A stretch of DNA of 64,000 nucleotides from Fusicatenibacter sp. (lineage in GTDB: Bacteria > Bacillota > Clostridia > Lachnospirales > Lachnospiraceae), in NCBI GenBank assembly GCA_050872605.1, contig JBNMHD010000009.1, one strand, 5' to 3'. Every line of letters begins with the position of its first letter. The stretch's first letter is position 1. The position numbers and the translations under genes are program-made. A model generated the notes under the pieces. It was not told where the DNA came from. It was given only the letters and a program-made list of their open reading frames with translations, and searched no databases. This document shows, in pieces, positions 31,664 through 48,824 of this stretch.

Positions 31664-31796
31664 GTTTCTTCCTCCAGTTTTTGTTTCTGTTTTTTGTTTT
31701 TATCCAAACAGAAACCGCAGATTTTTCTCTTTTTGAAAAAAGACCTTGCCTTTTATCATACCACAGAAATGAATGGGATACAACCTTTGGAAAATG

Positions 31797-31839
31797 CAAA
31801 AAAGGAAACCCGAAGGATTTTTGCTCCTCTGGATTTCCC
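31797..31839 (-). terminator. terminator of the cit/hydratase operon
   Basis: GGAAATCC / GGGTTTCC stem (one G:U pair) followed by TTTTTTGC on the minus strand, 18 nt after the hydratase stop. Confidence 0.55.
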
Positions 31840-31856
31840 TTTTGCATTTTCTGCTG

Positions 31857-34142
31857 TTATCTGTTTTTGTTAAAATTAATCAGGCATCCTGCTTTTACGA
31901 TCTTCTTTTCATTTTCTGTCATATCGGCAATGTATAAGGACAGTTCTTTTGGATGGCTGCCAAGTACATAGGCTTTGATTTCCTTCATATCACCATCCAG
32001 CGCGCTTCGAATGCCCGGGACGAAAATGTAGTCTCCTACTTCAAATTCCGGTTCGTCTTTCATCTGGAACGGAATCATACCCCAGTTCATGACGTTGGAG
32101 CGGTAACGTTTTGTCGCGTATTCCTTCGTGATATTGGCAAGGCCGCCGATGACTCTCTGACAGCTTGCTGCCTGCTCTCTGGCAGAACCGTCTCCCGGCT
32201 TTACCGCATAGATCATGCTTCCGATTTCCGTCTCCTGCGGCTGAATTTCTTCCTGCCCCGGAAGCTGCCGGATCTGTTCAAAAATTTCTTTTAACTGCGG
32301 CTCTTCCTCCAGCACATTTTTTCCTGCGGTTCTCGCCTTTTCCAGACGGTCTACTTCTTTGGAGCGGCCCACATATTTCGGATCTCGCCGCGACAGGGTA
32401 AACTCGGCCAGTCCGAGCGGATTGGAACGGTAGGATGACGTTTCGCCGGATGGAATCAGTTCATCGGTCGTCGTAACCGGATCGAGAATCTTCGAGCAGA
32501 CCTTCAGCAGAATGTTATCGGTTAAAGGACTCATCGCCGGCCAGTCTTTGATGTTCGGGCCGTAAACGAGCGCTTTCTCTGCATCTCCTTTTCCGTAACC
32601 GTAATAAACTCTCTTATCATATACCGACGAATCGAAGCTGTACTCCGGTACATCGCCCCAGCAGTCCATGGTTTCCGCAGAAGTCAGGATTCCTCCGTTT
32701 GCAGCGGTTGCTGCGATCGAACGGGCGTCCATCAGGGCAACGGCAGACATCTGTCCATTTCCCGGCTTGCTTCCCTCGCGGTTCGGGAAGTTTCTGGTCG
32801 TATGGCGGATGCTCAGGCCATCGTTGCACGGTGTATCTCCGGCGCCAAAGCATGGTCCGCAGAACGCCGTACGGATAATTGCTCCCGCTTCCATAAGGTC
32901 TGTGATATAACCCTGTCGTGTCAGGTTGATAAAGACAGGCTGAGAGGATGGATAGACTGCCAGGCTGAAGGTGTCGTTTCCGATATCTTTTCCTTTCAGC
33001 GCGTGGGCCGCTTCCACAACGTTCGTATAGTTGCCGCCCGCACAGCCTGCAATGACCGCCTGCTGTACCTGCAGTCCTTTTTCCGTCACTTTGTCCACCA
33101 GATGAAGTGCTGCTTTTCCCTGGGAAATCTTCTGTGCTTCTTTTTCCACATCCGCAAGAATGTCTTTGAGATTTGCATTCAGTTCATCAATCTCATAGGT
33201 ATTGCTTGGATGGAACGGAAGTGCGATCATTGGTTTTACGGTACTTAAATCCACAGAAACAACACCGTCATAATATGCCACATCAGCCGGATTCAGCTCT
33301 TTGTAATCATCTCCTCTTCCGTGCAGATTCAGGAAGTTTCTCGTATCCTCGTCCGTTCTCCAAATGGAAGAAAGGCAGGTCGTTTCTGTTGTCATTACGT
33401 CGATTCCGTTTCGGAAATCCGTTGTCATGGACGATACTCCAGGTCCTACAAACTCCATGACTTTGTTTTTGACGTATCCGTTTTTGAACACAGCACCGAT
33501 GATGGCAAGTGCAATATCCTGCGGTCCCACCCAGGGATTCGGCTTTCCGTCAAGATAAATTGCGATAACCTGTGGACATGCGACATCGTACGTGTCACAG
33601 AGAAGCTGTTTTACCAGCTCACCGCCGCCCTCACCGATCGCCATTGTTCCCATTGCGCCGTACCGGGTATGGGAATCCGATCCGAGAATCATCTTTCCGC
33701 ATCCGGCGTACATTTCTCTCATAAACTGATGAATGACTGCGATGTGCGGCGGAACATAGATGCCGCCGTATTTCTTCGCTGCGGAAAGGCCAAATACATG
33801 GTCATCTTCGTTGATCGTTCCGCCGACGGCACACAGCGAGTTATGGCAGTTGGTCAGCACATACGGAATTGGAAATTTTTCCATTCCGGACGCTTTTGCC
33901 GTCTGAATGATACCTACAAACGTGATATCGTGAGACGTCATTGCATCAAATTTCAGCTTGAGATTCTGCATATTTCCGGAGGTATTATGTGCCTCCATGA
34001 TGCCATAGGCAATGGTTCCCTTTCTCGCTTCTTCTTTTGTGACCTTCTTTCCCGTCATAGCTTCCACTTTCGCTGCTTCTGCTTCCGGCACAAGCGTGGT
34101 TCCGTTTACCAGGTATGCGCCTGTATCATATAACTTTACCAT
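31857..34142 (-). CDS. aconitase-family Fe-S hydro-lyase, long (761-aa) paralog of unknown substrate
   Basis: 'GSDSHTRYG', '[10 protein letters not shown]' and '[10 protein letters not shown]' match aconitase/IPM-isomerase cluster and substrate motifs. 'AGCAGGN' replaces the usual 'GSCTN'. A swivel domain sits at the C-terminus. Confidence 0.75.
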
Positions 34143-34165
34143 GGCGTTCTCTCCTTTATCTTTAT

Positions 34166-34324
34166 TTATGCCTGTTCTACATAATCATCGATCATTTCAA
34201 ACAGTTCTTTTTCTTTGTTTTTCGCCTCATTTTTCTGTTCGCGGCTTCTTTTGTCCTGCTCCTTTTTATATAGATTCATCACGCAGGCTCCAAAAATCGT
34301 CTGATAACTGATACTCTGCTTCAT
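34166..34324 (-). CDS. possible 52-aa Lys/Glu-rich mini-protein (below the ORF-track cutoff)
   Basis: ATG preceded by AAGGAGAA at 5 nt. The translation is [52 protein letters not shown]. It fills the otherwise empty citF-hydratase gap. Confidence 0.35.
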
Positions 34325-34368
34325 ACGCTTCTCCTTTTCCTCTGCGGTATTTTTAGGTGACTGAGGCT

Positions 34369-34410
34369 GCAGACCCGGGGCTGTGTGTGTTTTAGCCGTT
34401 CCGGGTCTGC
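34369..34410 (-). promoter_or_regulatory. intercistronic GC-rich stem-loop after citF
   Basis: Perfect 10-bp stem GCAGACCCGG / CCGGGTCTGC with a 22-nt loop and no U-tract, so it is not a canonical terminator. Confidence 0.5.
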
Positions 34411-34427
34411 TCTATCATGGCAACAAA

Positions 34428-35993
34428 TCAATGTGTGACTGGCTGTTTTGGTTTGATCTGGCGCACAACATCCATAATGGTGCCGTCGCGCGCCTCGATA
34501 ATGCCGACTACGCGGTCTTCAAATTTTACCGGATCCGGTTCTCCGACGATTCCGTATGCGATATCCCGCAGTTCTTCTATGGTTTTCAGCGGCACAGTAT
34601 CCGCTTTTTTCAGTGCTTCCAGCAGATCCGGTCTGGCCGGATTGACTGCCACGCCGTAATCGGTGACCACTACATCCACAGATTCCCCCGGTGTGGTAAC
34701 CGTTGTGACGTCGGTGCAGATCGCCGGGATTCTTCCCTGCAGAAGAGGGCAGATGACGATGGTGCATTTTGCTCCCTGCGCCGCATCCGGATGGCCGCCC
34801 TGTGCACCGGTAATCATGCCGTCGGATCCTACAACAACGTTGCAGTTAAAGTGTACATCCACTTCCAGCGCTGCCAGTACGACGTAATCCAGCTTGTTGA
34901 CAAACGCACCCTTGTTGAACGGGTTGGCATACGCGCCTGCGCTGATGCGGAAATGGTTCGGGCGGACGATATTATTGACAGCATCCAGGTCAAACGCCTG
35001 GGTATCCATCAGGCATCCGATCTGTCCTGCTTCCAGCATGTCTACCATCGGCTTTGTCATGCCGCCGACCGCAAATCCCATCTTAATTCCGCGCTCTTTC
35101 ATGATTTTTCCGAGGGAGATCGCCGATGCAATTGAAGCACCGCCGACGCCGGTCTGGTAGGAAAATCCCTCTTTGAAATACGGAGTGTTGACAACAACCT
35201 GCGTGCAGTATTCTGCCATCATGATTTTTCGGACATCCGTTGTCGGTTTCGCTGCGCCCGTTGCAATTTTCTCCGGCAGGCCGATCTGATCGACCACGCA
35301 GACATAATCCACTTTTGTGCCTGCCACATGCGCCGGATAATTCGGGAACGGCACCAGGCAGTCCGTAACGGCAACGACTTTGTTCGCATGATTTCCATCT
35401 ACGAAAGAGTACGAAAGCACGCCGCAGTTGCTTTTTCCGCCGACGGCACGGCAGTTTCCGTAATCATCGCACGTCGGTGCTCCGATAAAGGAGATATCAA
35501 TTGTCGTTTCTCCGGTCTGAATTGCACGGACACGGCCGCCGTGGGAACGCATGATGGCAAGGCCTTTTAATTTTCCGGTTGAAATGGCTTCTCCGATTTT
35601 ACCGCGCACACCGGAAGACTGAATGCCGGTAATCGTACCGTCCTCAATCATCGGAACGAGCGCATCGTGCGCTTTTCCAAGAGAGGACGCACAGATCGTA
35701 ACATCTTTGATGCCCATTTTCTGAACCTCTTTCATGACCATATTGACCACGAGGTCGCCTTCTCGGAAATGATGATGGAAACCTAAGGTCATCCCGTCAT
35801 GGGCACCGCATTTGACCAGTGCCTCGTGAATAGAGCTTACCATTTTGCTGGTGTTATGATCCATCACAACCTTTACGATCGGTCCCTGTTTGTGAAATTC
35901 CATTCCCTCTTTATAGTTATTTCCCTGGAATACTTCTTTTCCCGTCTGCTCCAGAATTTCTTCCGGGATATCTCTTCCAACTGCATTTATCAT
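34428..35993 (-). CDS. citF: citrate lyase alpha subunit (citrate CoA-transferase)
   Basis: 'GMTLGFHHHFREGDLVVNMVMKEVQKMG...MRSHGGRVRAIQTGE' parallels E. coli CitF. The ATG at 35993 follows AAGGGGGA and lies 1 nt after the citE stop. Confidence 0.9.
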   Translation of the reverse strand: MINAVGRDIPEEILEQTGKEVFQGNNYKEGMEFHKQGPIVKVVMDHNTSKMVSSIHEALVKCGAHDGMTLGFHHHFREGDLVVNMVMKEVQKMGIKDVTICASSLGKAHDALVPMIEDGTITGIQSSGVRGKIGEAISTGKLKGLAIMRSHGGRVRAIQTGETTIDISFIGAPTCDDYGNCRAVGGKSNCGVLSYSFVDGNHANKVVAVTDCLVPFPNYPAHVAGTKVDYVCVVDQIGLPEKIATGAAKPTTDVRKIMMAEYCTQVVVNTPYFKEGFSYQTGVGGASIASAISLGKIMKERGIKMGFAVGGMTKPMVDMLEAGQIGCLMDTQAFDLDAVNNIVRPNHFRISAGAYANPFNKGAFVNKLDYVVLAALEVDVHFNCNVVVGSDGMITGAQGGHPDAAQGAKCTIVICPLLQGRIPAICTDVTTVTTPGESVDVVVTDYGVAVNPARPDLLEALKKADTVPLKTIEELRDIAYGIVGEPDPVKFEDRVVGIIEARDGTIMDVVRQIKPKQPVTH

Positions 35994-35994
35994 C

Positions 35995-36894
35995 TTATAA
36001 GTCCCCCTTGTATACGCCGGACGCTTTTGCCAGTTCAATCACGCGTTTTGCTCCGTCATAAAATGCGATGTCGATCATTTTGCCGTCCACGGTAAATACG
36101 CCGATACCCATGGCTTTCTTTTCGTCAATCTCTTTTACAACCTTTTCCGAGAAAATGATTTCCTTTTCCGTCGGGGTATAAACATTATGTACTACGGAAA
36201 TCTGCCGCGGGTTGATGATGGATTTTCCGTCAAAGCCCATCATCTTGATCATGCGCACCTCTTTTTCAAACGCTTCCATGTCATCCAGATTGGTAAACAC
36301 GGTATCAAAGCACTGTACCTTCGCTGCTCTTGCCGCGATGATCATCAGCTGTCTGGCTCCTGCAAATTCCACGCCGGTTCCGGAAATCGTCGTCTGAAGG
36401 TCTTTCGAATAATCTCCGCCGCTTAAGGCGATGCCGAACAGCCGCTCAGAGGACTGACAGATTTCCAGCGCATTCATAATGCCCATGGCCGATTCCAGCG
36501 CCGCCATAATCAGGGTTCTTCCTTCCGGAATTCCAAATTCTGCTTCTGCTTTTCTGATCTCTTCTTCTACCATTCTGACATCTTTTGCGCTTTCGGTTTT
36601 TGGGATCCGGATAGAATCTGCACCGCCTGCCACACTGGCACGGATATCTTCTTTCCAGTATTCGGAATCAAGTCCGTTGATCCGCACAACGCGCTCCACA
36701 CCGTGGTAGTCAATTTCCTGCAGTGCATGATACAGAGAATATCTCGCTGCATCTTTTTCCTTTTCTGCTACGGCATCTTCCAGATCCAGCATAATGGAAT
36801 CCGGTTTGTAGATATACGGGTCTTTGATGAGTCCCGGTTTCTGACAGTTCAGAAACATCATGGTTCTTCTTAATCTCTTTTTGTTCGGATTCAT
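35995..36894 (-). CDS. citE: citrate lyase beta subunit (citryl-CoA lyase)
   Basis: 'RLRRTMMF...IMLDLEDAV' is the CitE/HpcH-type N-terminus. ATGA start/stop overlap with citD. Confidence 0.9.
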   Translation of the reverse strand: MNPNKKRLRRTMMFLNCQKPGLIKDPYIYKPDSIMLDLEDAVAEKEKDAARYSLYHALQEIDYHGVERVVRINGLDSEYWKEDIRASVAGGADSIRIPKTESAKDVRMVEEEIRKAEAEFGIPEGRTLIMAALESAMGIMNALEICQSSERLFGIALSGGDYSKDLQTTISGTGVEFAGARQLMIIAARAAKVQCFDTVFTNLDDMEAFEKEVRMIKMMGFDGKSIINPRQISVVHNVYTPTEKEIIFSEKVVKEIDEKKAMGIGVFTVDGKMIDIAFYDGAKRVIELAKASGVYKGDL

Positions 36895-37196
36895 GATCGA
36901 ATGACACCTCCCCATGGTAAATCAGATGTTTTTTCATTGGAACGGTATACAGCACATTCCACACGCGCTTTTAGGGTACAGTCCAGTGCGCCTTTGTCCA
37001 CGATATGGACTCTTGCATCACTTACTTCCAGGCGTTCCAACGTTTCCAGTACAACCTCCGTAATTTTTCTTCCGTACTGCTGGATCACGCTGCTGTCCAG
37101 TTCCAGTGTTATGCCGCCTTCTTCATTCGGCTCTATCGTGACCATGGCATCACTGGATTCCAGGGTTCCTGCTACTGCCGGTTTTTCAATCTTCAC
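36891..37196 (-). CDS. citD: citrate lyase acyl carrier protein (gamma subunit)
   Basis: '(M)KIEKPAVAGTLESSDAMVTIEP' matches E. coli CitD, including the prosthetic-group Ser14. GTG start 7 nt after AGGAGGT. Confidence 0.9.
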   Translation of the reverse strand: MKIEKPAVAGTLESSDAMVTIEPNEEGGITLELDSSVIQQYGRKITEVVLETLERLEVSDARVHIVDKGALDCTLKARVECAVYRSNEKTSDLPWGGVIRS

Positions 37197-37288
37197 TTTT
37201 TTTACCTCCTGTATGTCCTGTCTGTTTTTATCTTGTCTCTATTGTAAGCCCTCAAGGCTCCCACGTATAATTACTTAAAAGAATGATG

Positions 37289-38545
37289 TCATATAAAGAA
37301 TTTATATACTCCTGTCATCGCCATCACCGCCAGCACGGCCAGGTTGATAAACGATACCGCAAACAGCTCCAGAAACATCTTGTTCTGCGGAAAGCGTTCC
37401 TCGGAATCTTTCTGCTGCGCCACACCCGCCATAATCAGGGCACCTGTTGTAGAGATCGGCGTATAGCCTGCAATCGTTCCGCCGATGACAACCATGGCAA
37501 CCAGATAAACACCGTCTGCTCCGATTCCGCTTGCAAGACCGCCGCAGATCGGAACGAGCGTCGGAAATACAACGCCGAGGCCGGAGCTGAAAAAGGACAT
37601 GATGCCGGCCAGAAGCGCAATCACCGGTGCTGCACTCTTTTCGCCCATAACTTTTTCCAGTGCAGAGACCAGAAGATCGACACCGCCGGATAACGAAATT
37701 ACATTCATCAGAATTCCTACACCGAGCACCATGATAATAACATTCCACGGAACACCGGCAATCGCCTTCTTTTCCTTTCCGCATCCGAGAATACAGAGCA
37801 CCGAGCCGATCAGGAATCCGGTCAGGCCTACATTCCAGGATAATACCAGTACACCGAAGGCCAGAAGCAGAAGACCTGCAATTGACGCCATCTGCTGCCA
37901 GGTAAACTTCGGAAGCACTTCTTTCTCATCGGTCTGCATCGGTTTTTCCACTTTCCAGCCGCGGTAGTAAATGTAAACCAGTGCTGCACAGATCAGTGTT
38001 GTGACAATCGTACAGATCATAATCGGCACCGTATTGCCGTTCAGGTTCTGCTCCTCCATCAGGCCCCGTACAACGGCTGCTTCCGGTGTCAGCGGACTCA
38101 TTCGTCCGGCCATGGCTCCCATGTCTCCGATGATTGCCGTCATAATCGGGTTAATTCCTGCGGAAATCGAGATCGGAATGGCGATCACCGGGATGATGGC
38201 AAGGCACGGAATCGAACCAGGGCCAACGGCGCTCAGCACCATGCCGATCAGGAACATAACGAACGGAATCATCCGCGCCGGCACTTTGTTTACGATCTTT
38301 TTCGCCAGCAGCTCCAGCGTTCCGTTTCCATTGATAATGGCAAAGAGATACGTCACACCTACCATCTGTACAAACAGGGATGTACTGAATCCGGAAACAA
38401 CGTCTTTCGTTGAAAGTGTATCCGGGAACAGCAGCGTCAGAATCATGGCAAAGCCAATGCTTAAAATTCCGACATTCACATTGCGGACAAAACCGATCAC
38501 GATGGCCGCCAGCAGAAGGACCAGAGAAATTACAGCTAAGTTCAT
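37289..38545 (-). CDS. ion-transporter-superfamily anion permease (CitMHS/DASS/ArsB-NhaD-like), putative tricarboxylate importer
   Basis: 418 aa with about 11-12 TM segments and a central hydrophilic loop. It lies directly upstream of citD. The subfamily is not resolved by eye. Confidence 0.65.
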   Translation of the reverse strand: MNLAVISLVLLLAAIVIGFVRNVNVGILSIGFAMILTLLFPDTLSTKDVVSGFSTSLFVQMVGVTYLFAIINGNGTLELLAKKIVNKVPARMIPFVMFLIGMVLSAVGPGSIPCLAIIPVIAIPISISAGINPIMTAIIGDMGAMAGRMSPLTPEAAVVRGLMEEQNLNGNTVPIMICTIVTTLICAALVYIYYRGWKVEKPMQTDEKEVLPKFTWQQMASIAGLLLLAFGVLVLSWNVGLTGFLIGSVLCILGCGKEKKAIAGVPWNVIIMVLGVGILMNVISLSGGVDLLVSALEKVMGEKSAAPVIALLAGIMSFFSSGLGVVFPTLVPICGGLASGIGADGVYLVAMVVIGGTIAGYTPISTTGALIMAGVAQQKDSEERFPQNKMFLELFAVSFINLAVLAVMAMTGVYKFFI

Positions 38546-38557
38546 ATTCCGGTCCTC

Positions 38558-39601
38558 CTATGCAAATACGATGCAGACCGGGCTGCCTGTCGGGATGATG
38601 TTCAGGGTCGGAAACAGCTGGCCCGTCGCGGAATCAAATTCAAATTCTACAATGGTATCGCTGTCCTCATTTGCCACAAAGCAGCGGCCGTTCGGTGCAA
38701 AGCAGAAGAAACGCGGTGTTTTTCCAAGGCAGGAATAAAAGCCGGTATTCTTCAGATATCCCGTCACCGGATCAATGCGGTATACGGCAATACTGTCGGT
38801 GTAGCGGTTGGATACAAGCACATAGCGTCCGCTCGGGTCCACACAGACCTCACTGGCATCGGAATAGCTGGTGATGGTTTCCGGCACGGTGGACAGCTCC
38901 TGCATGGCTTCCATTGCACCTGTCTTCTCATCGAACTGGAAATAGAGCACCTTGTTTCCTTTTTCTTCGCACATATAGACCCAGCGGTTGTTTGGATGCA
39001 CTGCCGCGTGTCTCGGTTCGTCCCAGGTTCTCGCAAAGAACTGCGCCGTCTGGGTAAATGTTCCTGTCTCATGGCTGTACCGCAGTGCCCGCATCTGGCC
39101 GTATCCGTTGATCCGTCCCTGTGCACAGGCGAACAGATAATTTTTCCTCTGATCCCAGAGACACTGATGAATCGTAGAAACCTTTCCCTCTTCTTTTCCT
39201 TCATAGGTGTAGGTCGCAGCCACATCACCGAGGGAACCGTCCTCTTTTCTCTCGATCGTGTATAAAGTGCCGCCCTGCAGCGTTGCCACGATCACATGCT
39301 TATTTTCTTTGTCTATCGTAATGTCGACCGGATTTTTTCCTCCGATGTCGATGGTATTCAGATGCTTCAGAGTATGATCCGCAAGGATCTGATAGCTGCT
39401 CACTTTCGTAAAATCTCCGTGTACGGAATAGAGAAATTTCTTTTCCTGATCCATCGTCTGGTACGACGGGTTCGGCTCGGTTTCCAGACACTGCACCAGC
39501 TTCCAGACACCGGTCTGATCGTTGATTTCATAGACACATAAGCCTTTTCCTCTTGCGTTTCTTTCTTTTGTTGTTCTGCATCCTACGTATGCGTAACTCA
39601 T
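38558..39601 (-). CDS. lactonase-family 7-bladed beta-propeller protein (YbhE/6-phosphogluconolactonase-like)
   Basis: About 347 aa from the ATG at 39601, which follows AAAGGAGG. 'YVGCRT...', repeated 'P..I..D..G..L(Y/F)V.N' blade patterns and 'FEFD..TG.L' are typical of the family. Confidence 0.65.
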   Translation of the reverse strand: MSYAYVGCRTTKERNARGKGLCVYEINDQTGVWKLVQCLETEPNPSYQTMDQEKKFLYSVHGDFTKVSSYQILADHTLKHLNTIDIGGKNPVDITIDKENKHVIVATLQGGTLYTIERKEDGSLGDVAATYTYEGKEEGKVSTIHQCLWDQRKNYLFACAQGRINGYGQMRALRYSHETGTFTQTAQFFARTWDEPRHAAVHPNNRWVYMCEEKGNKVLYFQFDEKTGAMEAMQELSTVPETITSYSDASEVCVDPSGRYVLVSNRYTDSIAVYRIDPVTGYLKNTGFYSCLGKTPRFFCFAPNGRCFVANEDSDTIVEFEFDSATGQLFPTLNIIPTGSPVCIVFA

Positions 39602-39692: not shown

Positions 39693-39738
39693 ACAAAAAG
39701 ACTATGCCGGGTATTCCACATCGGAATACCCGGCATAG
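39693..39738 (-). terminator. strong rho-independent terminator after the first LysR gene
   Basis: 16-bp perfect stem CTATGCCGGGTATTCC / GGAATACCCGGCATAG with a GATGT loop, followed by TCTTTTTGTG on the minus strand. Confidence 0.85.
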
Positions 39739-39771
39739 CAGGAAGCCTTTTTTCTTGTTACATTTTTTCTC

Positions 39772-40653
39772 TCAGTTTTGTTCTGTTACCTGATTGACCT
39801 GATAATACTGTTCTACAAAGCTGACGAATTCCATGATGGCAGGGCTTAAAAAGCACCGGTCTGACATCATCATCCACACTTTTCTGCTCACAATATCACC
39901 ATGGCGGTCATACACCGGAAGCTTCTGCAGCTTCTCTTCGTTGATCTTCCATTTGGAGCCGAACACAAAAGTAACACCGATTCCGCTCTCTACCATCTCG
40001 ATGGCAATGTCGGCATGCGTTACCGTATACGTATCCCTTGGAATCTCCCCGAAATGGCTCTGCCACCACTGATTGACCATCAGCTTTACCAGCGGATTGT
40101 AATACGATTCGATCAGTGTATATTTCTCGATGTCTTCGAACCGTACCCCTTTTTGTGTCACCATATACATTTCTTCATCCAGCAGACAGACTTTCTCCCC
40201 GATATAAGGATAGTCACCGCAGATGATTCCAATATCAATGCTTCCGCTGGTGAGTTGCTGAATGATGTTGTCACTCGTATTCGATACCGTCCGGATCTGA
40301 AGGTGATTATACTGCTCCAGATACTGCATCAGCATCTGCGGCATATGAATCCGGGCAAAAGAATTTGGGACACCGATTTTCAGGATATCTTTTTTGACGG
40401 TTCCGTTAAAGTGCTGTTCGATCTCCTTCAGAAAATCAATCATGATATTTGCCTTTTTTACCAGGTAAATTCCATCCTCTGTAAATTCCACGCCCTGGCT
40501 GCTGCGCCTTACGACTTCAATATTCCACTCTTCTTCGATGGCACGGACCCGCTTGGTCAGTGCGGACTGCGTCATATACAATGCTTCTGCCGCCTTGGTC
40601 ATGCTCTTCTTTTCATATAAAACAACCAGAATTTTCCAGTCAATTTCCTTCAT
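39772..40653 (-). CDS. LysR-family transcriptional regulator
   Basis: 293 aa with the N-terminal wHTH 'SMTKAAEALYMTQSALTKRVRAIEEEW'. Confidence 0.9.
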   Translation of the reverse strand: MKEIDWKILVVLYEKKSMTKAAEALYMTQSALTKRVRAIEEEWNIEVVRRSSQGVEFTEDGIYLVKKANIMIDFLKEIEQHFNGTVKKDILKIGVPNSFARIHMPQMLMQYLEQYNHLQIRTVSNTSDNIIQQLTSGSIDIGIICGDYPYIGEKVCLLDEEMYMVTQKGVRFEDIEKYTLIESYYNPLVKLMVNQWWQSHFGEIPRDTYTVTHADIAIEMVESGIGVTFVFGSKWKINEEKLQKLPVYDRHGDIVSRKVWMMMSDRCFLSPAIMEFVSFVEQYYQVNQVTEQN

Positions 40654-41533
40654 GTTTTTCTTTGTTCTTTTCTGAAATCTCTTTTTCTACATAGGTTACA
40701 AATTCTTCCAGATGCGGGGAGAGGCGTTTGTTTTTCGAATACAGAAACCAGGTGTTTCTCGTCACCGGTCTGCCGTCCAGCGTTTCCAGCGGTGTCAGGC
40801 AGAGATGATGCTCATTTTCGAAATGGGCCGGCAGAAAACAGATCGTATAGCCCACGCCTCTTGCGATCAGCTGCCACGCCACGTCAACGTATCCTACCAC
40901 CATGCCGGACGGAAATTCGTTTTCAAATCGTTCCTCCCACCATGCATGGAGCAGTTCCATTGTGCGGTCATTCGTCTTGTAGCCCAGATACTGCATCGAC
41001 GGCAGTTCTTCGAAAGTAACCGGCTCTTTTGTCACAAGATACGCGGCATCTTTTCCGATCAGCCGCCGGTTCACAACGCCCTCATAATCTCCGCGGATAA
41101 AGCCCACATCAATGGATTCATCCAGCATCTTGCGGAACAGCACGTTGCTCTGTTCGTTTATGATGCTGAAATTGATATTCGGATGGTCCCTGCGGTAAGC
41201 AAGAAGAAGATCCGAAAGGGAATATTTACTGAAGGTATAGGAAGATCCGATCACAATCTCTCCTTTCGATTTTTCCTTCATCCCTTTCAGTTCTTCTCTT
41301 GTCTTTTTCAGGAATTTCAGATATTCCTCCGCTTTTTCTGCCAGAAAGTCTCCTTCCCTCGTAAACTCCAGTCCTTTGGGGGTGCGGTTTACAATCTGTA
41401 TCTGAAATTCCTCTTCCATATGCTGAATCCTTTTTGTCAGAGATGGCTGCGTCATATACAGCAGATTTGCCACCTTTGTCATATTTGGATTTTTATGCAG
41501 TTCATATAAAATTTCCCAGTCCGAATCCTTCAT
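40640..41533 (-). CDS. LysR-family transcriptional regulator (second tandem copy)
   Basis: About 297 aa from the ATG at 41533, 8 nt after AAGGAG. wHTH 'NMTKVANLLYMTQPSLTKRIQHMEEEF'. It overlaps the downstream LysR gene by 14 nt. Confidence 0.9.
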   Translation of the reverse strand: MKDSDWEILYELHKNPNMTKVANLLYMTQPSLTKRIQHMEEEFQIQIVNRTPKGLEFTREGDFLAEKAEEYLKFLKKTREELKGMKEKSKGEIVIGSSYTFSKYSLSDLLLAYRRDHPNINFSIINEQSNVLFRKMLDESIDVGFIRGDYEGVVNRRLIGKDAAYLVTKEPVTFEELPSMQYLGYKTNDRTMELLHAWWEERFENEFPSGMVVGYVDVAWQLIARGVGYTICFLPAHFENEHHLCLTPLETLDGRPVTRNTWFLYSKNKRLSPHLEEFVTYVEKEISEKNKEKHEGN

Positions 41534-41574
41534 CTTTCGATCTCCTTTTGAAATCACGCATTTTCTCCTGTCAT

Positions 41575-41635: not shown

Positions 41636-42817
41636 TTATGCATTTTTCAGGTTTCGGATGGTATCCAGAAGATAATCGGTAAATTCAGCCGCACTTGCAT
41701 CCTCCGGGAATGTCGTCACGACGAGTTTTTTCTCGGTTACGGTGCAGATTTCCAGTGCCTCATCCAGAAGACGGCTGCGGTCTCCATAACCGATATGCAC
41801 CAGCATCTGTCCGATGGCACGGATCAGACTGCATGGGTTGGCATACGCGCCTCTGTTGTGGGAAATCAGATACGGTGCGGTGCCGTGGATCGCCTCAAAC
41901 AGGGCATACCGGTTTCCGATATTGGAGGAGCAGGCATTTCCAAGGCCGCCTGCGTGCTCTGCCGCAACATCGGTCACGATATCGCCGTAGAGGTTCGGAA
42001 GCACAACGACTTCAATTCCCTGGTTAAAGCTTTCATCGAGCATCTTCGCACACATAGCATCCACCAGGCGCTCCTGAATTTCGATTTCCGGATACTCTTC
42101 TCCGACTTTACGGACTGCCTTGATAAAATTACCGTCTGCCAGTTTTACGATATTGGCTTTCGTCACAATCGTCACATTTTTCTTTCCGTTCTTTCTGGCA
42201 AACTCGAACGCTGCTCTTGCGATGCGTTCGCTTCCCTGTTTCGTCTGAACCTTAAAGTCTACGGCAAGATCCTCATCTACCTGAATGCCTTTGTCGCCCC
42301 AGATATACTCGCCCTCGATGTTTTCCCTAAAGAACGTCCAGTCAATGTTTTTGTCCGGAATCTTAATCGGCCGTACCGCCGCGAAAAGTTCCAGCTCTCT
42401 TCGAAGCAGACTGTTGGCGCTGACCAGGTTCGGCAGGCCTTCTCCGGCTCTCGGCGTTACCATCGGGCCTTTCACCAGCACATCACATGCTTTGATTTCC
42501 GGAATGATATCCGACGGCAGGCTTTCCATCTTTGCCACACGGTTTTCAATCGTCATGCCCTCGATCGTTCTTACCTCGATTTTTCCGCTTTTGATTTCAT
42601 CACCGGCAAGCTCATTTAAAACGCGGAGTGCCTGCTCCATCAGAATCGGTCCTACGCCGTCGCCCGGCAGAATGCCAACGATGATTTTTTCTTTCTTCTT
42701 GAAATCGGTCAGCTCCTGTGACTCCTTCATCCGTTCAATTCGTTTCGATTCCTGCTCAATCAGGGCCCCAAATTTTTCCTGCGCCTGTTTCACATGTTCC
42801 TGTGTGATTCCGCTCAT
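41636..42817 (-). CDS. icd: isocitrate/isopropylmalate dehydrogenase-family protein, probable NAD(P)-isocitrate dehydrogenase
   Basis: 393 aa with 'ILPGDGVGPI', 'LFAAVRP', 'NLYGDIVTDVAAEHAGGLG' and 'FEAIHGTAP'. It lies directly downstream of the aconitase. Confidence 0.8.
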   Translation of the reverse strand: MSGITQEHVKQAQEKFGALIEQESKRIERMKESQELTDFKKKEKIIVGILPGDGVGPILMEQALRVLNELAGDEIKSGKIEVRTIEGMTIENRVAKMESLPSDIIPEIKACDVLVKGPMVTPRAGEGLPNLVSANSLLRRELELFAAVRPIKIPDKNIDWTFFRENIEGEYIWGDKGIQVDEDLAVDFKVQTKQGSERIARAAFEFARKNGKKNVTIVTKANIVKLADGNFIKAVRKVGEEYPEIEIQERLVDAMCAKMLDESFNQGIEVVVLPNLYGDIVTDVAAEHAGGLGNACSSNIGNRYALFEAIHGTAPYLISHNRGAYANPCSLIRAIGQMLVHIGYGDRSRLLDEALEICTVTEKKLVVTTFPEDASAAEFTDYLLDTIRNLKNA

Positions 42818-42836: not shown

Positions 42837-44786
42837 CTAGTTTTCTAACTGTTTCTTTAAATAGCGGAGCTGTCCGCCGCTTAATACTACATCGATTTCA
42901 TTGTCGGTCAGATCGAGATTAACCTCAAACACCGTCTCTTTCGTTACGTTTTTCACCTGTACTTTTCTGGTCGGGATCTGATCGAGAAGCTGTGTGATTT
43001 CCAGCTCATCTCCCTGGTCGATCTTGTCATAATCTGCCGGATCTGCAAACAGCATCGGAATGATTCCATGGTTGACCAGATTTCCTTTGTGAATGCGGGC
43101 AATACTCTTGGCAATGACGCATTTCACGCCAAGATACATCGGATTGATGGCCGCATGCTCTCTCGAGGAGCCCTGTCCGTAATTCTCGCCGCCCACGATA
43201 ATGCTTTTGCCGAGCTCTTTTGCTCTTGCCGCAAAATCCGGTGCATATCTGTGGTAGCAGTACTGCGACATCAGCGGGATATTGGAGCGCATGCTGGAAA
43301 ATTCTGCGCTGGCCGGTGTGATATCGTCGGTGGAAATATTGTCTCCGCCTTTCAGGCTGACCGGCACTTTCAGATACTGCTCCGGCACATCCGGTACCGG
43401 GAGAAATTTGATATTTGGTCCGCGGACGATTTCGACTTCCTTTGCTTCTTCCTCCGGAAGCGGCGGGATAATCATATTGTCGTTGATATCGTATTCGTCC
43501 GGCTCTTTGATTTCGGCCAGTTTTGCCACATCGCTGCTAAGGATATCTTCTGCGGTTGCAAAGGTTCCCATGATGGCTGTTGCTGCTGCACTCTCCGGGC
43601 TGACCAGATAGATTTTGGCATTCGGGTTGCCGGCTCTTCCCTTGAAGTTACGATTGGAGGTACGCACGGCCACACCCTCCGTCGCCGGGGTCTGTCCGAT
43701 CGCACAGCACGGTCCGCAGGCAATTTCCAGGAAGCGCACACCGGCATCGATCATCATATCAACATAACCGTCGCGGAGCAGTGCTTTATACGTCTGTCTG
43801 GAATTGACGGCACATGTACAGCTCACATTATCGTTGACTTTTCTTCCCTGGAAGACCAGTGCGGCTTTTGCCACATCTGCATAACTTGTATTCGTACAGC
43901 TTCCGATGAAGACCTGCTGCACCGGAAGTTTTTCCACTTCCCGCATCGGTTTTACATTATCCGGCTGATGCGGACATGCCACCAGCGGCTCCAGTTCACT
44001 TAAGTTGATCTGGATCTCTTCGTCATACTCGGCATCTTTGTCCGGAAGAAGTTCGACGTATGCATCCTCTCTTCCCTGCGCTTTCATGAATTTATGTACC
44101 TGCTCATCCGCCGGGAAAATTGAAGTGGTAGCTCCCATCTCCGCACCCATATTGGTGATGGTCGCACGCTCCGGCACTTCCAGTGTTGCCGCACCCGGTC
44201 CCACGTACTCGTATACATTTCCAAGACCGCCTTTGATCGTAACCTTCCGCAGCATTTCGAGAATGACTTCTTTGGCATTCACACCCGGCTGCAGTTTTCC
44301 GGTCAGATTGACTTTAATCACACGCGGCATCTTCAGTCGCATCGGAACACCTGTCATCGCCGTTGCAACATCCATTCCGCCTACACCGATGCAGAGCATG
44401 CCGATCGAGCCGCCGTGCGGGGTGTGGCTGTCGCCTCCCATACTGATTTTCCCAGGCGCTCCAAATCGTGCCACATGAACGGTATGACAGATTCCATTTC
44501 CCGGTCTGGATACGTAGACGCCGAATTTTTTTGCCGCAGATGTCAGATAAATATGGTCGTCCGGTGTTTTGTGGTCGACATAGAGCAGATTGTGATCCAG
44601 ATAGCTGACGCTGCATTCCGTGCGGACACGATCAAGGCCGATGGCTTCAAAGGCAAGATACGTCATAACTGCATTAATGTCATGGGTCAGTGTCTGATCC
44701 ACTTTGATAAAAACTTCTTCCCCCGGAACCAGGCTTCCGGATACATAGTGTGATTCAATAATTTTTCTGGTTAATGATTTTCCCAA
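42837..44786 (-). CDS. acn: aconitate hydratase (bacterial ~650-aa type)
   Basis: 'GGDSHTPHGG', 'IGSCTNTSY', 'ACGPCCAIGQ' and 'SNRNFKGRAG'. I chose the TTG start at 44786, 7 nt after AGGAGG; the ORF-track start at 44876 has no RBS. Confidence 0.85.
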   Translation of the reverse strand: MGKSLTRKIIESHYVSGSLVPGEEVFIKVDQTLTHDINAVMTYLAFEAIGLDRVRTECSVSYLDHNLLYVDHKTPDDHIYLTSAAKKFGVYVSRPGNGICHTVHVARFGAPGKISMGGDSHTPHGGSIGMLCIGVGGMDVATAMTGVPMRLKMPRVIKVNLTGKLQPGVNAKEVILEMLRKVTIKGGLGNVYEYVGPGAATLEVPERATITNMGAEMGATTSIFPADEQVHKFMKAQGREDAYVELLPDKDAEYDEEIQINLSELEPLVACPHQPDNVKPMREVEKLPVQQVFIGSCTNTSYADVAKAALVFQGRKVNDNVSCTCAVNSRQTYKALLRDGYVDMMIDAGVRFLEIACGPCCAIGQTPATEGVAVRTSNRNFKGRAGNPNAKIYLVSPESAAATAIMGTFATAEDILSSDVAKLAEIKEPDEYDINDNMIIPPLPEEEAKEVEIVRGPNIKFLPVPDVPEQYLKVPVSLKGGDNISTDDITPASAEFSSMRSNIPLMSQYCYHRYAPDFAARAKELGKSIIVGGENYGQGSSREHAAINPMYLGVKCVIAKSIARIHKGNLVNHGIIPMLFADPADYDKIDQGDELEITQLLDQIPTRKVQVKNVTKETVFEVNLDLTDNEIDVVLSGGQLRYLKKQLEN

Positions 44787-44880
44787 GATGTTTCCTCCTT
44801 TTTGCTTCTTTCCGATTCTTGTTGCTGTCTTTAGTATAGCGGATACTTCTTTCGAAATGAAATTGTATAAAGTCATGTGC

Positions 44881-46122
44881 TTATTCCGAAATGGAATCCC
44901 CTTTTTCTTTGCTTTCCATATAGCGGCTCATGCCCTCCGCCGCAATTTTGGCACCCGCTACCGCATGAACCACAGTTTTGGAACCATGGACGACATCACC
45001 GGCTGCAAACACGCCTTCTTTTGTTGTCATTCCATTTTCATCCACAAGGAGAAGTCCCTGCTCGGAAGCCTCGAGTCCTACAGTTGTACGAACCAGCTTT
45101 CTTCGCGGCCCCTGGCTGATGGAAATGATCGTCGAATCTGCCTCGACCTGCTCTTCTTCCTCTTCGAAGCCAATGATTTTGTTGTTTTCATCGAGAATCG
45201 AATTGACAAAAACAGGACCCTTCTCTGTGATCCGCCGGATCTCTTTTCCAAATACGAACTCCGCCCCGTCAAGCTGTGCATACGCCACTTCATTGGAGCT
45301 TGCCGCAATTCTCGTTCCTCTCGCGTATAAGGTCACCTGGCGGGCACCGTTTCGAAGCGCCGTTCTTGCCACGTCCATCGCTGCATTTCCCATGCCGATG
45401 ATGGCTACCTTTTCTCCGAGATGGTACGCTTTCGGGCTTGCCAGATAATCAATTCCAAAATGAACATTTCCCAGACACTCTCCTTCAATCCCGAGATTTC
45501 TGGCCTTCCATACACCGGTTCCCACAAAAATGGCGGCGTATCCGTCCCGGAGCAGATCATCAATCTTCAGGACAGCTCCTATCGTCGTATTCGGCCTGAT
45601 CTGGATGCCAAGCTGCCGCATCTGTTTTTCATACCGTTCCAGAATCTGCTTGGACAGCCGGAATTCCGGTATTCCATACTGCGTGATGCCGCCGATTTTG
45701 TCCTTCCACTCAAAAACCGTCACCGGATATCCTTTTTTCGCCAGGGTAATGGCCACCGTCATGCCTGCCGGGCCGGCTCCGATCACAGCCGCTTTCTGTG
45801 TCTTTTTTTCTGCTGCCTTCACCTGCATCCGGTCCAGATACGTATCTGAGAGATACGTTTCAATGCTGGAAAAATGAACCGGCGTTCCTTTTCTGCCCAG
45901 CACGCAGTTTCCCGCACACTGTTTTTCGTGATTACAGACAATCGAACAGATCACGGACATCGGATTGTTTTCAAACAGTATTTCTCCGGCTTCCAGTACC
46001 TTGTTTTCCTTGAACAGCTGGATGACCTTCGGGATCGGCGTATGAACCGGACATCCCTGCTGGCACATCGGTTTTTTACAATTTAAGCATCTGTTTGCTT
46101 CGTCAATAATATGCAGTCCCAT
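44881..46122 (-). CDS. NADPH-dependent glutamate synthase small-chain-like oxidoreductase (GltA/SudA type)
   Basis: About 413 aa from the ATG at 46122. N-terminal Fe-S 'CLNCKKPMCQQGCP' and two dinucleotide folds, 'VIGAGPAGM' and 'IIGMGNAAMD'. Confidence 0.8.
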   Translation of the reverse strand: MGLHIIDEANRCLNCKKPMCQQGCPVHTPIPKVIQLFKENKVLEAGEILFENNPMSVICSIVCNHEKQCAGNCVLGRKGTPVHFSSIETYLSDTYLDRMQVKAAEKKTQKAAVIGAGPAGMTVAITLAKKGYPVTVFEWKDKIGGITQYGIPEFRLSKQILERYEKQMRQLGIQIRPNTTIGAVLKIDDLLRDGYAAIFVGTGVWKARNLGIEGECLGNVHFGIDYLASPKAYHLGEKVAIIGMGNAAMDVARTALRNGARQVTLYARGTRIAASSNEVAYAQLDGAEFVFGKEIRRITEKGPVFVNSILDENNKIIGFEEEEEQVEADSTIISISQGPRRKLVRTTVGLEASEQGLLLVDENGMTTKEGVFAAGDVVHGSKTVVHAVAGAKIAAEGMSRYMESKEKGDSISE

Positions 46123-46320
46123 ATTTTTTTCTCCCTTCCGCCTGCTTTTTCTTGCTCTCATCATAGCCCGAAACAGAATTCTTTGGAAAATTCTGTTTTT
46201 CTATATACGGATTCCGAAAGGGAATTGCCCGATCTCTTCCCATTTTCCTTCTTTTCCGGTATGATTGCAGTAGACAAAATCCCATACGGCATGGTATGTT
46301 TGAAGAAGGAGGAATTCAAT

Positions 46321-47739
46321 ATGACCTATCCGGCATCCGAAAAAAAATCTGGAAAAGAAGTTACTTTAGCCCAAATGCTGGAGGCAAGAGAACGGCGTGC
46401 GTTTCACCAGAAAGAGCTCCTTTCCAAGTTCCGCAGACCTCTCCTTAGTTTCACCATGAATATTGCAGGACCGGTCAAGAACTCAGAGCTGATCCGCAGA
46501 GGCTTTGCGAAAGGTTTGTCTGATCTCCGGCAGCAGCTCACACGCCAGAAAGCCGGGATTCTTTTTGAGGAAGTTTTTTCGGATATCACGGGAAATGAAG
46601 CCTTTCTCGTTGTCGATATCGACGGAAAAGAATTAAAGGAACTCTCCTGCGAGCTGGAGGATCAGAATGACCTAGGACGGCTTTACGATATGGATGTGCT
46701 GGTACCCTCTTCGGATGTGCCTTTTTTTTCAAGAAAGCTGGACCGCACCGAGATTGGAAAACCGCACCGCGTCTGTCTGATCTGCGGTGCTCCGGCAAAA
46801 GAGTGTGCTTCCCGCCGTCTTCACAGCGTGGAAGAACTGCAGGCAAAAACAGAATCCATTCTGAAAAATGCTCTGCTGGAACAGGATGCAGTCCTTATCG
46901 CCGGTCTTGCCGTGCGTTCTCTTCTCTATGAAGTGAGTGTCACGCCAAAGCCCGGCCTTGTCGACCGTGCCAACAACGGAAGCCACAGAGATATGAATTT
47001 TTATTCGTTTCTGAACAGCGCCTCTGCCCTATGGCCCTACTTTCACGAATGTGTACGGCTCGGACAGGAATACACCGGCTGTGCGCCGGAACTTCTTCCC
47101 GACCTTTTTACCCGGCTGCGTCTTCCAGGTAAACTGGCGGAAAACGAGATGCTGTACGCCACGGGCGGTGTCAATACCCACAAAGGAGCGATTTTCAGCA
47201 TGGGCATTCTCTGCGCCGCACTCGGTGCTGCCCTGCCTTCCCAGCGGAAACAGCCGGAAGAGATTTTAAAGCTCTGCTCGCTTCTGACAAACGGCATTAC
47301 AACGTATGATTACGCCGGTCTCACAAAAGAGAACGCCAGAACTGCCGGGCAGCGGTTTTACGTCATGTATGGAATTACGGGAATCCGCGGGGAAATGGAA
47401 AACGGACTCCCTGTTGTTTCCCGGTACGGTCTTCCGCTTCTCGAGCAGCTGCTTTCTGAGGGAAAAAGCGAAGATGAGGCAGGTGCTGCCGTTCTGCTCA
47501 CGATTATGGCGCATATGACAGACACCAATCTGATCGCCAGAAGTAATCTGAAAACGCAAAAGACCGTTTCCGCTCAGGTGCAGAACGTAATCGAAGCAGA
47601 TAACTGCCCGGGAACCGCCCTGCTCGATGAAATGAATGAACAGTTTATGGAACAAAATCTGTCTCCCGGCGGAAGTGCGGATCTGCTTGCCGTATGCTGG
47701 ATGCTTCACTTTGTTAAAGAGGAGCCTCTGCTTCACTGA
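46321..47739 (+). CDS. citXG: fused CitX-CitG: apo-citrate lyase phosphoribosyl-dephospho-CoA transferase + triphosphoribosyl-dephospho-CoA synthase
   Basis: 472 aa from the ATG at 46321, which follows AAGGAGGAA. The N-terminal 'VTLAQMLEARERRAFHQ' is CitX-like. The C-terminal 'VTPKPGLVDRANNGSHRDM...GGSADLLA' is CitG-like. Confidence 0.85.
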   Translation: MTYPASEKKSGKEVTLAQMLEARERRAFHQKELLSKFRRPLLSFTMNIAGPVKNSELIRRGFAKGLSDLRQQLTRQKAGILFEEVFSDITGNEAFLVVDIDGKELKELSCELEDQNDLGRLYDMDVLVPSSDVPFFSRKLDRTEIGKPHRVCLICGAPAKECASRRLHSVEELQAKTESILKNALLEQDAVLIAGLAVRSLLYEVSVTPKPGLVDRANNGSHRDMNFYSFLNSASALWPYFHECVRLGQEYTGCAPELLPDLFTRLRLPGKLAENEMLYATGGVNTHKGAIFSMGILCAALGAALPSQRKQPEEILKLCSLLTNGITTYDYAGLTKENARTAGQRFYVMYGITGIRGEMENGLPVVSRYGLPLLEQLLSEGKSEDEAGAAVLLTIMAHMTDTNLIARSNLKTQKTVSAQVQNVIEADNCPGTALLDEMNEQFMEQNLSPGGSADLLAVCWMLHFVKEEPLLH

Positions 47740-47766: not shown

Positions 47767-48813
47767 ATGTGTGACACCTGCACCATTTCCCATATTTCCC
47801 CTGCAGATACGCGCCGTCTCGCCGAGATTGATGCACTGCTTCTGCAGGAGGGGATTCAAAGAGACAAAAATCTCGATGTGATCTGCGCTGTTTTTAACGA
47901 GCAGAACCGGATCATCGCCACCGGAAGCTGTTTTTTTAATACACTGCGCTGCTTTGCCGTTTCGAAAGAGTACAAAGGAGAAGGATTTTTCGCAAAGCTT
48001 CTGTCTCATCTGATTGAACTTCAGTTCCAGAAAGGGTATACCCATCTGTTTCTCTACACGAAACCGGAAACTGCGCCGCTGTTTGCCAGCCTCGGATTTT
48101 CTGAAATTGCCCGTGTGCCGGATACGCTTGCTTTCATGGAAAACAGACGCAGCGGATTTTCCGATTATCTGAAAAAACTTATGGAAACCAAAACGGACGG
48201 AAAGCAAAGCGCTATTGTGATGAACGCAAACCCGTTCACGCTGGGACACCAGTATCTGATCGAAACCGCAGCTTCTCGGTGTGATACACTGCATCTTTTT
48301 CTGATCAGCGAAGATGTCTCCCTTGTTCCGTTTTCCATCCGCAAACGGCTGGTCAAAGAAGGATGCGCCCATCTTTCGAATGTCGTTCTTCATGGCAGCG
48401 GTCCCTACATCATCAGCAATGCGACGTTTCCAAGCTATTTTCTGAAAGAAGAAACAGCGGTGATCCGCGGCCATGCACTGCTGGATCTTGCTGTCTTTGA
48501 AAAAATTGCTTCTGCTCTGCAGATTACCGAGCGGTATGTCGGCGAGGAACCCTTCAGCCTGGTAACCGGGCTTTACAACGAGATCATGGCAAACGAACTG
48601 CCAAAAGCAGGCATTGCCTGTCATATCATTCCGCGCAGAAAAACAGACGGCCGCACCATCAGTGCTTCTGCCGTCCGTTCCTGTTTAAAAAACGGCGATT
48701 TTGCTCTTCTTCGAACCCTGGTTCCGAATTCTGTTTACCGGTATTTTACATCCCCGGAAGCAGAACCCGTACTTTGGAAGATTCAGCACGCCGAATCTGT
48801 TATTCACTATTAA
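47767..48813 (+). CDS. citC: [citrate (pro-3S)-lyase] ligase
   Basis: 348 aa. N-terminal acetyltransferase-like domain plus the 'IVMNANPFTLGHQYLIETAA' adenylyltransferase motif, as in E. coli CitC. Confidence 0.9.
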   Translation: MCDTCTISHISPADTRRLAEIDALLLQEGIQRDKNLDVICAVFNEQNRIIATGSCFFNTLRCFAVSKEYKGEGFFAKLLSHLIELQFQKGYTHLFLYTKPETAPLFASLGFSEIARVPDTLAFMENRRSGFSDYLKKLMETKTDGKQSAIVMNANPFTLGHQYLIETAASRCDTLHLFLISEDVSLVPFSIRKRLVKEGCAHLSNVVLHGSGPYIISNATFPSYFLKEETAVIRGHALLDLAVFEKIASALQITERYVGEEPFSLVTGLYNEIMANELPKAGIACHIIPRRKTDGRTISASAVRSCLKNGDFALLRTLVPNSVYRYFTSPEAEPVLWKIQHAESVIHY

Positions 48814-48824
48814 GGAGTATACAA

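Follow-up and report, generated by a model that had tools for sequence, protein, structure and literature searches.

What substrate is served by an operon in which the genes for citrate lyase are accompanied by those for a lactonase-like beta-propeller and a hydratase of the aconitase family? The question is raised by a stretch of 64,000 nucleotides of contig JBNMHD010000009.1 of Fusicatenibacter sp. (assembly GCA_050872605.1), referred to below as the window. At positions 31857-39601, seven co-oriented minus-strand genes are framed by two strong hairpins and encode, in this order, the propeller, a MatC-like anion carrier, the citrate lyase subunits CitD, CitE and CitF, a protein of 52 aa and a YbhJ-type hydratase. 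Since citrate needs no feeder enzymes, the most economical reading is a substrate whose use begins with opening or isomerisation. We give a probability of roughly 0.5 to the proposal, drawn from gene content, that the operon is the Clostridial, citrate-lyase-equipped form of a mobile module for the catabolism of an exogenous tricarboxylate of the citrate family other than citrate itself, i.e. a lactone or an isomer or analogue from outside the tricarboxylic acid (TCA) cycle. Candidate substrates would be isocitrate-type lactones, aconitate isomers and hydroxycitrate-type acids.

The gene set, rather than the lyase, is what is conserved. The window proteins were mapped onto 116 loci with relatives of the propeller (36 from genomes and 80 from metagenomes), and a census was taken of those 43 in which the propeller gene is flanked by 7 kb or more on each side. 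In this subset an aconitase gene (Acn) was present in 40 loci, the carrier gene in 38, where it adjoins the propeller gene, an isocitrate dehydrogenase (IDH)-like gene in 32, a pair of LysR regulator genes in 27-29 and YbhJ in 24, followed by CitDEF (21), RraA-like (11), GltD-like (5) and PrpF-like (5) genes. The core of the module is thus made up of propeller, carrier, aconitase, IDH-like enzyme and YbhJ, to which CitDEF is added in roughly every second locus. A preliminary description of the window had pictured a lactonase and a hydratase bracketing the lyase; as the core of the system this arrangement is not supported, CitDEF being found in only 21 of the 43 loci. The association of propeller and hydratase with the lyase is nevertheless no accident, as propeller, carrier and aconitase-family genes recur jointly across phyla and the YbhJ belongs to a clade of module-linked proteins.

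While the gene set is kept among related loci, its order is shuffled, e.g. CitDEF-Acn-IDH-LysR-LysR-propeller-carrier-YbhJ in locus L144 and propeller-carrier-YbhJ-IDH-CitDEF in locus L162, and minimal operons of the form Acn-propeller-carrier-RraA-like occur in L194, L203 and L212. The LysR pair directly upstream of the propeller gene is kept in most Clostridial loci. A human-gut metagenome contig (L178) holds the entire island around the operon, with 94-100% protein identity. The module was not found in three sampled genomes of the window's own family, which fits an accessory, transferred trait.

Some of the related loci deserve a comment of their own. In a 2.1-Mb genome, a 45%-identical propeller gene lies between a truncated aconitase gene (330 aa) and a split carrier gene (L063, 8700-11700), which looks like a decaying copy of the module. 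Six loci with the Clostridial-type module at 74-86% identity (L007, L010, L021, L023, L029 and L036) stand under metagenome-assembled genome names of Prevotella, Moraxellaceae, Bacteroides, Parabacteroides or Succinatimonas; these names are probably binning or labelling errors rather than genuine cross-phylum near-identity. In L183 (11061-14185), the order is aconitase-propeller-DASS carrier-RraA-like-HIBADH-like reductase, the reductase hinting that the RraA-like enzyme yields an aldehyde, e.g. glyoxylate or tartronate semialdehyde.

Beyond the Clostridial loci, the 'lactonase family protein' of Klebsiella oxytoca and Klebsiella pneumoniae corresponds to the propeller at 50% identity, and Klebsiella-type contigs carry a LysR gene together with the series propeller-carrier-Acn-PrpF-like-YbhJ-IDH-like, the products being 48-71% identical to the window proteins. 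Contexts of propellers of intermediate identity were taken from plasmid records and one metagenome scan. Plasmids of Priestia megaterium, Roseomonas, Comamonadaceae, Burkholderia and Pantoea encode propellers with 33-38% identity, whose genes have acnA and those of tricarboxylate carriers (an MFS citrate symporter, TTT or CitMHS) as neighbours, so that in these five plasmid groups, as in the window, the propeller gene adjoins a carrier gene and an aconitase gene lies in the locus. One Burkholderia operon has the order acnA-propeller-prpF. A Ralstonia propeller has an MFS carrier as its sole partner, and a Rhodococcus plasmid, with no aconitase gene at the site, has a 32%-identical propeller gene next to those for a CitE-like aldolase and a citrate symporter. 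It is the distance of the homologues from Klebsiella and the plasmids that lends independence to the recurrence of the module, which has spread horizontally.

The Pantoea agglomerans plasmid (L123, 12833-17089) also bears a cassette of MFS, Amidohydro_2, Asp-Glu-racemase-family and IDH-family genes beside its propeller-acnA genes. The same trio is found with otnK, otnC and tpiA on a plasmid of Rhizobium sp. CB3060 (L217). This cassette probably represents a separate acid-sugar (lactone) pathway and was not counted as part of the module; an 'arylsulfatase' annotation in the Pantoea record looks wrong.

The hydratase links the operon to YbhJ of Escherichia coli. The two hydratases share about 70% identity, and in phylogenetic trees the module-linked YbhJ sequences, including those of Klebsiella and E. 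coli, form one clade with 100% support, while stand-alone copies and the second YbhJ paralogue of the window genome fall outside it. By sequence, the window hydratase is an orthologue of E. coli YbhJ. The paralogue (contig 36, 3107-5389) is 64% identical to the window copy, groups with stand-alone YbhJ of the same family and is encoded next to PucR-type and two-component regulator genes. The cluster ligands Cys367, Cys428 and Cys431 of the window hydratase are intact, as are the HD, DSHT, RNF..R and GSARE motifs. Since all three cysteines and the aconitase substrate motifs are kept, the protein is expected to be an active (de)hydratase acting on a citrate-like acid. No YbhJ structure was found in a search of the PDB.

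In E. coli, ybhJ lies in the cluster pgl(ybhE)-ybhD-ybhH-ybhI-ybhJ, which resembles the module in combining a YbhE-type propeller, a LysR regulator, an anion carrier and YbhJ. In contrast to the window, it includes a PrpF-like protein (YbhH) and a DASS carrier (YbhI), and it has no aconitase gene, IDH-like gene or CitDEF. YbhD has 57% identity with the LysR protein encoded in the Klebsiella-type module, and YbhI 45% with the DASS carrier of one module variant, while the E. coli propeller shares only 23% identity with that of the window; E. coli Pgl (YbhE) is an experimentally demonstrated 6-phosphogluconolactonase. In E. coli LR-45, ybhJ is annotated as frameshifted (L215, 7481-9741), and the gene is therefore dispensable in at least some E. 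coli isolates.

The propeller (347 aa, cytoplasmic) starts from an ATG at 39601, preceded by the ribosome-binding site AAAGGAGG. Its scores against the Pgl models are far below the cut-offs, i.e. 87 bits against 500 for NF050136 and 85 bits against 370 for NF008258. H145, R197, H198, E213, R266 and R297 are common to this protein and E. coli Pgl; a further conserved set, absent from Pgl, consists of R9, T10, R14, H61-G62-D63 and N90. Therefore, it looks like a lactonase-type scaffold with an anion-binding site unlike that of Pgl. A role as 6-phosphogluconolactonase was rejected on these scores and because the window genome (3.06 Mb, 99.6% complete) gave no G6PD_C match: without G6PD there is no 6-phosphogluconolactone for the propeller to hydrolyse, making a Pgl role in the oxidative pentose-phosphate pathway unlikely. 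Its relatives in the PDB comprise Pgl-type enzymes, structural-genomics entries with no assigned function and, at a greater distance, the carboxymuconate cycloisomerase of fungi (CMLE, 1JOF, E = 1e-9).

The lyase itself appears to be of the citrate type. The operon copy of CitF is the only one in the whole genome; its coordinates are counted from a TTG, the real start probably lying about 40 codons downstream. Genes for CitXG and CitC, which serve the synthesis and activation of the CitD prosthetic group, lie 7 kb upstream of the operon, divergent from the GltD-like/Acn/IDH-like operon, and their presence makes the citrate-lyase machinery complete inside the window. CitDEF may cleave a citrate-type product to acetate and oxaloacetate, citrate analogues also being conceivable substrates. 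The preliminary description had proposed a citramalate-type lyase as an alternative. This was rejected, since no feature speaks in its favour: CitD and CitF score above the citrate-lyase equivalog cut-offs, citC, citX and citG are present, and all partner enzymes are of the tricarboxylate type.

The coordinates of the features are collected below. The gene list, gene order and bounding terminators of the preliminary description agree with the ORFs, the families and the two strong hairpins. The 39701-39739 hairpin is the terminator of the upstream LysR operon and the upstream limit of the unit. In gene order, the junctions measure 12 nt, 92 nt, two overlaps, about 103 nt (with the internal hairpin inside) and 23 nt. 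While the bounded operon stands as described, the island as a whole reaches further upstream, to the LysR pair, the GltD-like/Acn/IDH-like operon and citXG/citC. It is closed by the gene for a YitT-family membrane protein with DUF2179 (48774-49700), which overlaps the end of citC and also follows citC in L178.

Features of the operon and the island, in order of position in the window
Feature	Position	Strand	Evidence
Downstream terminator hairpin with U-run, operon end	about 31793-31847	-	-29.3 kcal/mol, z = -6.0
YbhJ-type aconitase-family Fe-S hydratase, 761 aa	31857-34142	-	NF008503/PRK11413, 1398 bits (cut-off 641), full length
Conserved 52-aa protein	34166-34324	-	homologues in 17 loci
Internal GC-rich hairpin without U-tract, citF/52-aa ORF gap	about 34369-34410	-	-25.6 kcal/mol, z = -5.1
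CitF, alpha subunit	34428-36038	-	TIGR01584, 633 bits (cut-off 501)
CitE, beta subunit (citryl-ACP lyase family)	35995-36915	-	HpcH_HpaI, 224 bits; TIGR01588, 362 bits (below cut-off 443)
CitD, acyl-carrier (gamma) subunit	36891-37196	-	TIGR01608, 117 bits (cut-off 63.5)
MatC_N/CitMHS-type anion carrier, 418 aa	37289-38545	-	adjoins the propeller gene in 38 of 43 loci
Seven-bladed beta-propeller, 'lactonase family', first operon gene	38558-39601	-	PF10282, 228 bits, full length
Upstream terminator hairpin	39701-39739	-	17-18 bp stem, then T-run; -31.8 kcal/mol, z = -8.0
CcpC-like LysR regulators, an overlapping pair	39772-40653, 40640-41557	-	pair kept upstream of the propeller gene in most Clostridial loci
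IDH-like dehydrogenase	41636-42817	-	present in 32 of 43 loci
PRK07229-type aconitase	42837-44876	-	Acn in 40 of 43 loci; the only one of this type in the genome
GltD-like FAD/Fe-S oxidoreductase	44881-46164	-	present in 5 of 43 loci
CitXG fusion	46321-47739	+	CitX, 177 bits; CitG, 263 bits
CitC ligase	47767-48813	+	TIGR00124, 297 bits (cut-off 262)

As judged from its sequence, the 52-aa open reading frame (ORF) is a real gene. Its homologues share Y.T[IL]FG..[VI]M near the N-terminus and a C-terminal [EH]LFE[MI][VI]DDY[IV]EQA, the stop following immediately 3' of EQA in 16 of the 17 loci, and full-length homologues have an ATG or GTG start with a GGAG ribosome-binding site. Every locus with a homologue holds both CitDEF and YbhJ, and the usual place of the gene is after YbhJ. 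The protein has no match in Pfam or NCBIfam, and the ESM Atlas likewise yielded nothing.

Elsewhere in the genome, a canonical NADP-IDH and two citrate synthases are encoded. Contig 2 carries a Na+-translocating decarboxylase cluster (L067, about 32400-37650), unlinked to the island, with an MmdA/GcdA-like carboxyltransferase, an OadA-like subunit, OAD-beta, OAD-gamma and a separate biotin carrier; having both the carboxyltransferase and the OadA-like subunit, it may serve two substrates. The statement of the preliminary description that oxaloacetate decarboxylase (OAD) is lacking thus holds for the island but not for the genome. No PF04303 (PrpF) match and no RraA-like gene were found in the window genome.

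From these parts we infer a pathway, each enzymatic step as well as the nature of the substrate being deduced from gene families and context. The acid would be taken up by the MatC-like carrier, sensed by the two CcpC-like LysR proteins and opened or rearranged by the cytoplasmic propeller, in which lactonase-type catalytic residues are kept. YbhJ and the upstream aconitase would then dehydrate and rehydrate the product, giving citrate-type and isocitrate-type intermediates. The former would be cleaved by CitDEF, activated by CitXG and CitC, to acetate and oxaloacetate, which the unlinked Na+-decarboxylase complex could convert to pyruvate, and the latter would be turned into 2-oxoglutarate by the IDH-like enzyme. 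The preliminary description's suggestion that the imported substrate is a relative of citrate or its lactone fits the recurrent propeller-carrier-aconitase set and the module-clade YbhJ.

More broadly, it is tempting to speculate that propeller, carrier, aconitase, YbhJ and IDH-like enzyme, with CitDEF, RraA-like and PrpF-like enzymes as options, constitute an undescribed, horizontally mobile pathway of gut and plant-associated bacteria of several phyla for the use of a plant acid of the tricarboxylic type in lactone or isomer form, e.g. isocitrate lactone, hydroxycitrate lactone or an acid derived from aconitate. Such a pathway might also give a function to E. coli ybhD-ybhH-ybhI-ybhJ and explain why pgl lies beside them; we put this forward only tentatively. 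The ybh genes, YbhJ included, are treated as unassigned in PMC9068703, the one paper found to deal with them. Our literature search, outside the scope of which most subscription journals lay, returned nothing on a propeller-aconitase module or on bacterial catabolism of hydroxycitrate or isocitrate lactone, and no assigned function for YbhJ, YbhH, YbhI or YbhD. The earlier judgement that the route is undescribed is in line with this, as no account of the module was found.

Several observations weigh against a dedicated route for a non-citrate acid. The island aconitase is the only PRK07229-type aconitase of the genome, and the upstream operon could therefore be a housekeeping supply of glutamate precursors rather than a catabolic unit. 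In some relatives, a gene for a 2HCT citrate carrier lies immediately before CitDEF, so that CitDEF may be a separate plain-citrate unit parked beside the module. Members of the YbhJ family score above the cut-off in 34 of 401 sampled genomes of the phylum, mostly as stand-alone genes with unrelated neighbours, and YbhJ thus need not always serve the module; the contexts of 20 stand-alone copies (two-component systems, FAA-hydrolase, DUF386) were uninformative. Finally, many of the 116 loci are close kin, and their counts reflect recurrence rather than independent events.

Some of these points lead directly to plain citrate fermentation, in which the MatC-like carrier would import citrate, CitDEF would cleave it and the contig-2 complex would decarboxylate the oxaloacetate, leaving propeller and YbhJ as accessory genes or passengers. 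The full citrate-lyase machinery and the OAD-type cluster of the genome speak for this, the LysR regulators resemble CcpC, a citrate-sensing type, and the 2HCT carriers beside CitDEF in relatives point the same way. Nevertheless, we consider it unlikely: cleavage of citrate requires neither a lactonase-like enzyme nor two aconitase-family enzymes, the propeller-carrier pair accompanies aconitase, IDH-like enzyme and YbhJ in loci and phyla without CitDEF, and the YbhJ of the operon belongs to the module clade and is not the lineage's own copy.

Similarly doubtful is the simple use of an aconitate isomer, where imported trans-aconitate would be converted to citrate or isocitrate and passed to citrate lyase as in Acidaminococcus fermentans, with the propeller or YbhJ replacing the PrpF isomerase, e.g. 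YbhJ acting as a trans-aconitate hydratase. Trans-aconitate is abundant in grasses, and the window genome has no PrpF gene. The A. fermentans carriers with MatC domains are encoded next to aconitase and IDH genes (PMC3035267), TarR/TarA/TarB combine a LysR regulator, a PrpF isomerase and a carrier (PMC11495376), and E. coli ybhD-ybhH-ybhI-ybhJ amount to the same LysR/PrpF/carrier trio plus YbhJ. However, PrpF-like and propeller genes share an operon in Klebsiella-type, Burkholderia and several Clostridial loci, so that the propeller is more than a replacement for PrpF, and a lactonase-type active site would have no obvious role.

Another route, based on chemical reasoning alone, starts from hydroxycitrate. 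Here, the propeller would open the lactone of a 2,3-dihydroxy tricarboxylate (hibiscus or garcinia acid), an aconitase-type enzyme would dehydrate the product to oxalosuccinate, and the IDH-like enzyme (in relatives, the RraA-like one) would decarboxylate or reduce this to 2-oxoglutarate or isocitrate, the isocitrate reaching CitDEF as citrate via YbhJ or Acn. This would explain a dedicated extra IDH-like enzyme despite the canonical IDH, the minimal Acn-propeller-carrier-RraA-like operons and the alternation of IDH-like genes with RraA-like genes, which belong to an aldolase/beta-keto-acid decarboxylase family. On the other hand, the window genome has no RraA-like gene, our literature search found no report that these organisms degrade hydroxycitrate, and the module is widespread among bacteria associated with humans, animals and plants, whereas hydroxycitrate is not known to occur outside a few genera of plants (Garcinia, Hibiscus). 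As a general explanation it appears rather improbable.

The island might instead serve anabolic salvage, with GltD-like protein, aconitase and IDH-like enzyme supplying 2-oxoglutarate and glutamate from external tricarboxylates and citrate lyase balancing carbon without an energy-yielding fermentation. The composition of the upstream operon, divergent from citXG/citC and holding the sole PRK07229-type aconitase, would suit this, as would the CcpC-like regulators, which resemble those of Bacillus citB/citZ. Yet two citrate synthases and a canonical NADP-IDH are available elsewhere in the genome, GltD-like genes occur in only 5 of the 43 loci, and the aerobic plasmid versions, with their carriers and GntR or LysR regulators, look catabolic; we therefore regard salvage as very unlikely. 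A PDC/oxalomesaconate-type route was set aside as improbable, its sole support being the best-hit names of relatives' PrpF-like and RraA-like genes, while it leaves the IDH-like gene unexplained and the ring-cleavage steps at its source need oxygen.

If catabolism of a non-citrate tricarboxylate by the module is correct, human-gut Clostridia and Klebsiella would commonly carry, as an accessory trait, a dietary plant-acid route missing from current pathway maps. YbhJ, YbhH, YbhI and YbhD of E. coli K-12 would gain a testable function, since the window hydratase is orthologous to YbhJ, and the YbhE/Pgl propeller family would gain a second catalytic role. The Klebsiella version would offer a genetically tractable test system.

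Among known systems, the enterobacterial citrate loci (dpiBA-citCDEFXG-citT in E. coli, citS-oadGAB-citAB/citCDEFG in Klebsiella) share with the window CitDEF, CitC, CitX and CitG, an anion carrier in the operon and oxaloacetate decarboxylation in the genome. In contrast to these, the carrier of the window is MatC-like rather than 2HCT or CitT, the regulators are LysR proteins rather than CitAB, OAD is unlinked, and citXG/citC lie 7 kb from citDEF; propeller, 52-aa protein and YbhJ are extra, and an aconitase/IDH-like operon is attached. The island thus has neither the 2HCT/CitT carrier nor the in-cluster OAD or malic-type enzyme of a classical citrate cluster.

Trans-aconitate fermentation by A. 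fermentans is similar in that aconitase-type enzymes of an anaerobic gut bacterium pass a non-citrate tricarboxylate on to cleavage by citrate lyase and decarboxylation by a Na+-dependent enzyme (PMC3035267). In that route, via citrate, oxaloacetate and pyruvate, no role of a propeller or YbhJ is reported. TarR/TarA/TarB of Bacillus velezensis likewise comprise a LysR regulator, a carrier and an enzyme turning an imported aconitate-type acid into a TCA intermediate (PMC11495376), but they rely on a PrpF-family isomerase and an MFS transporter, whereas the window encodes, besides the lyase and the propeller, two enzymes of the aconitase family and no PrpF.

The AcnD/PrpF branch of the 2-methylcitrate cycle offers a further parallel, in that two aconitase-family enzymes and a PrpF isomerase change the position of the hydroxyl in a citrate analogue; in the Klebsiella-type module, such a trio (two aconitase-family enzymes and a PrpF-like protein) is joined by an IDH-like enzyme. 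However, the module lacks PrpC and PrpB, the window lacks PrpF, and the methylcitrate cycle has no lactonase-like enzyme. The operon would be a variant of citrate-lyase-based tricarboxylate catabolism, set within a wider, apparently unstudied module that takes in the orphan ybh genes of E. coli.

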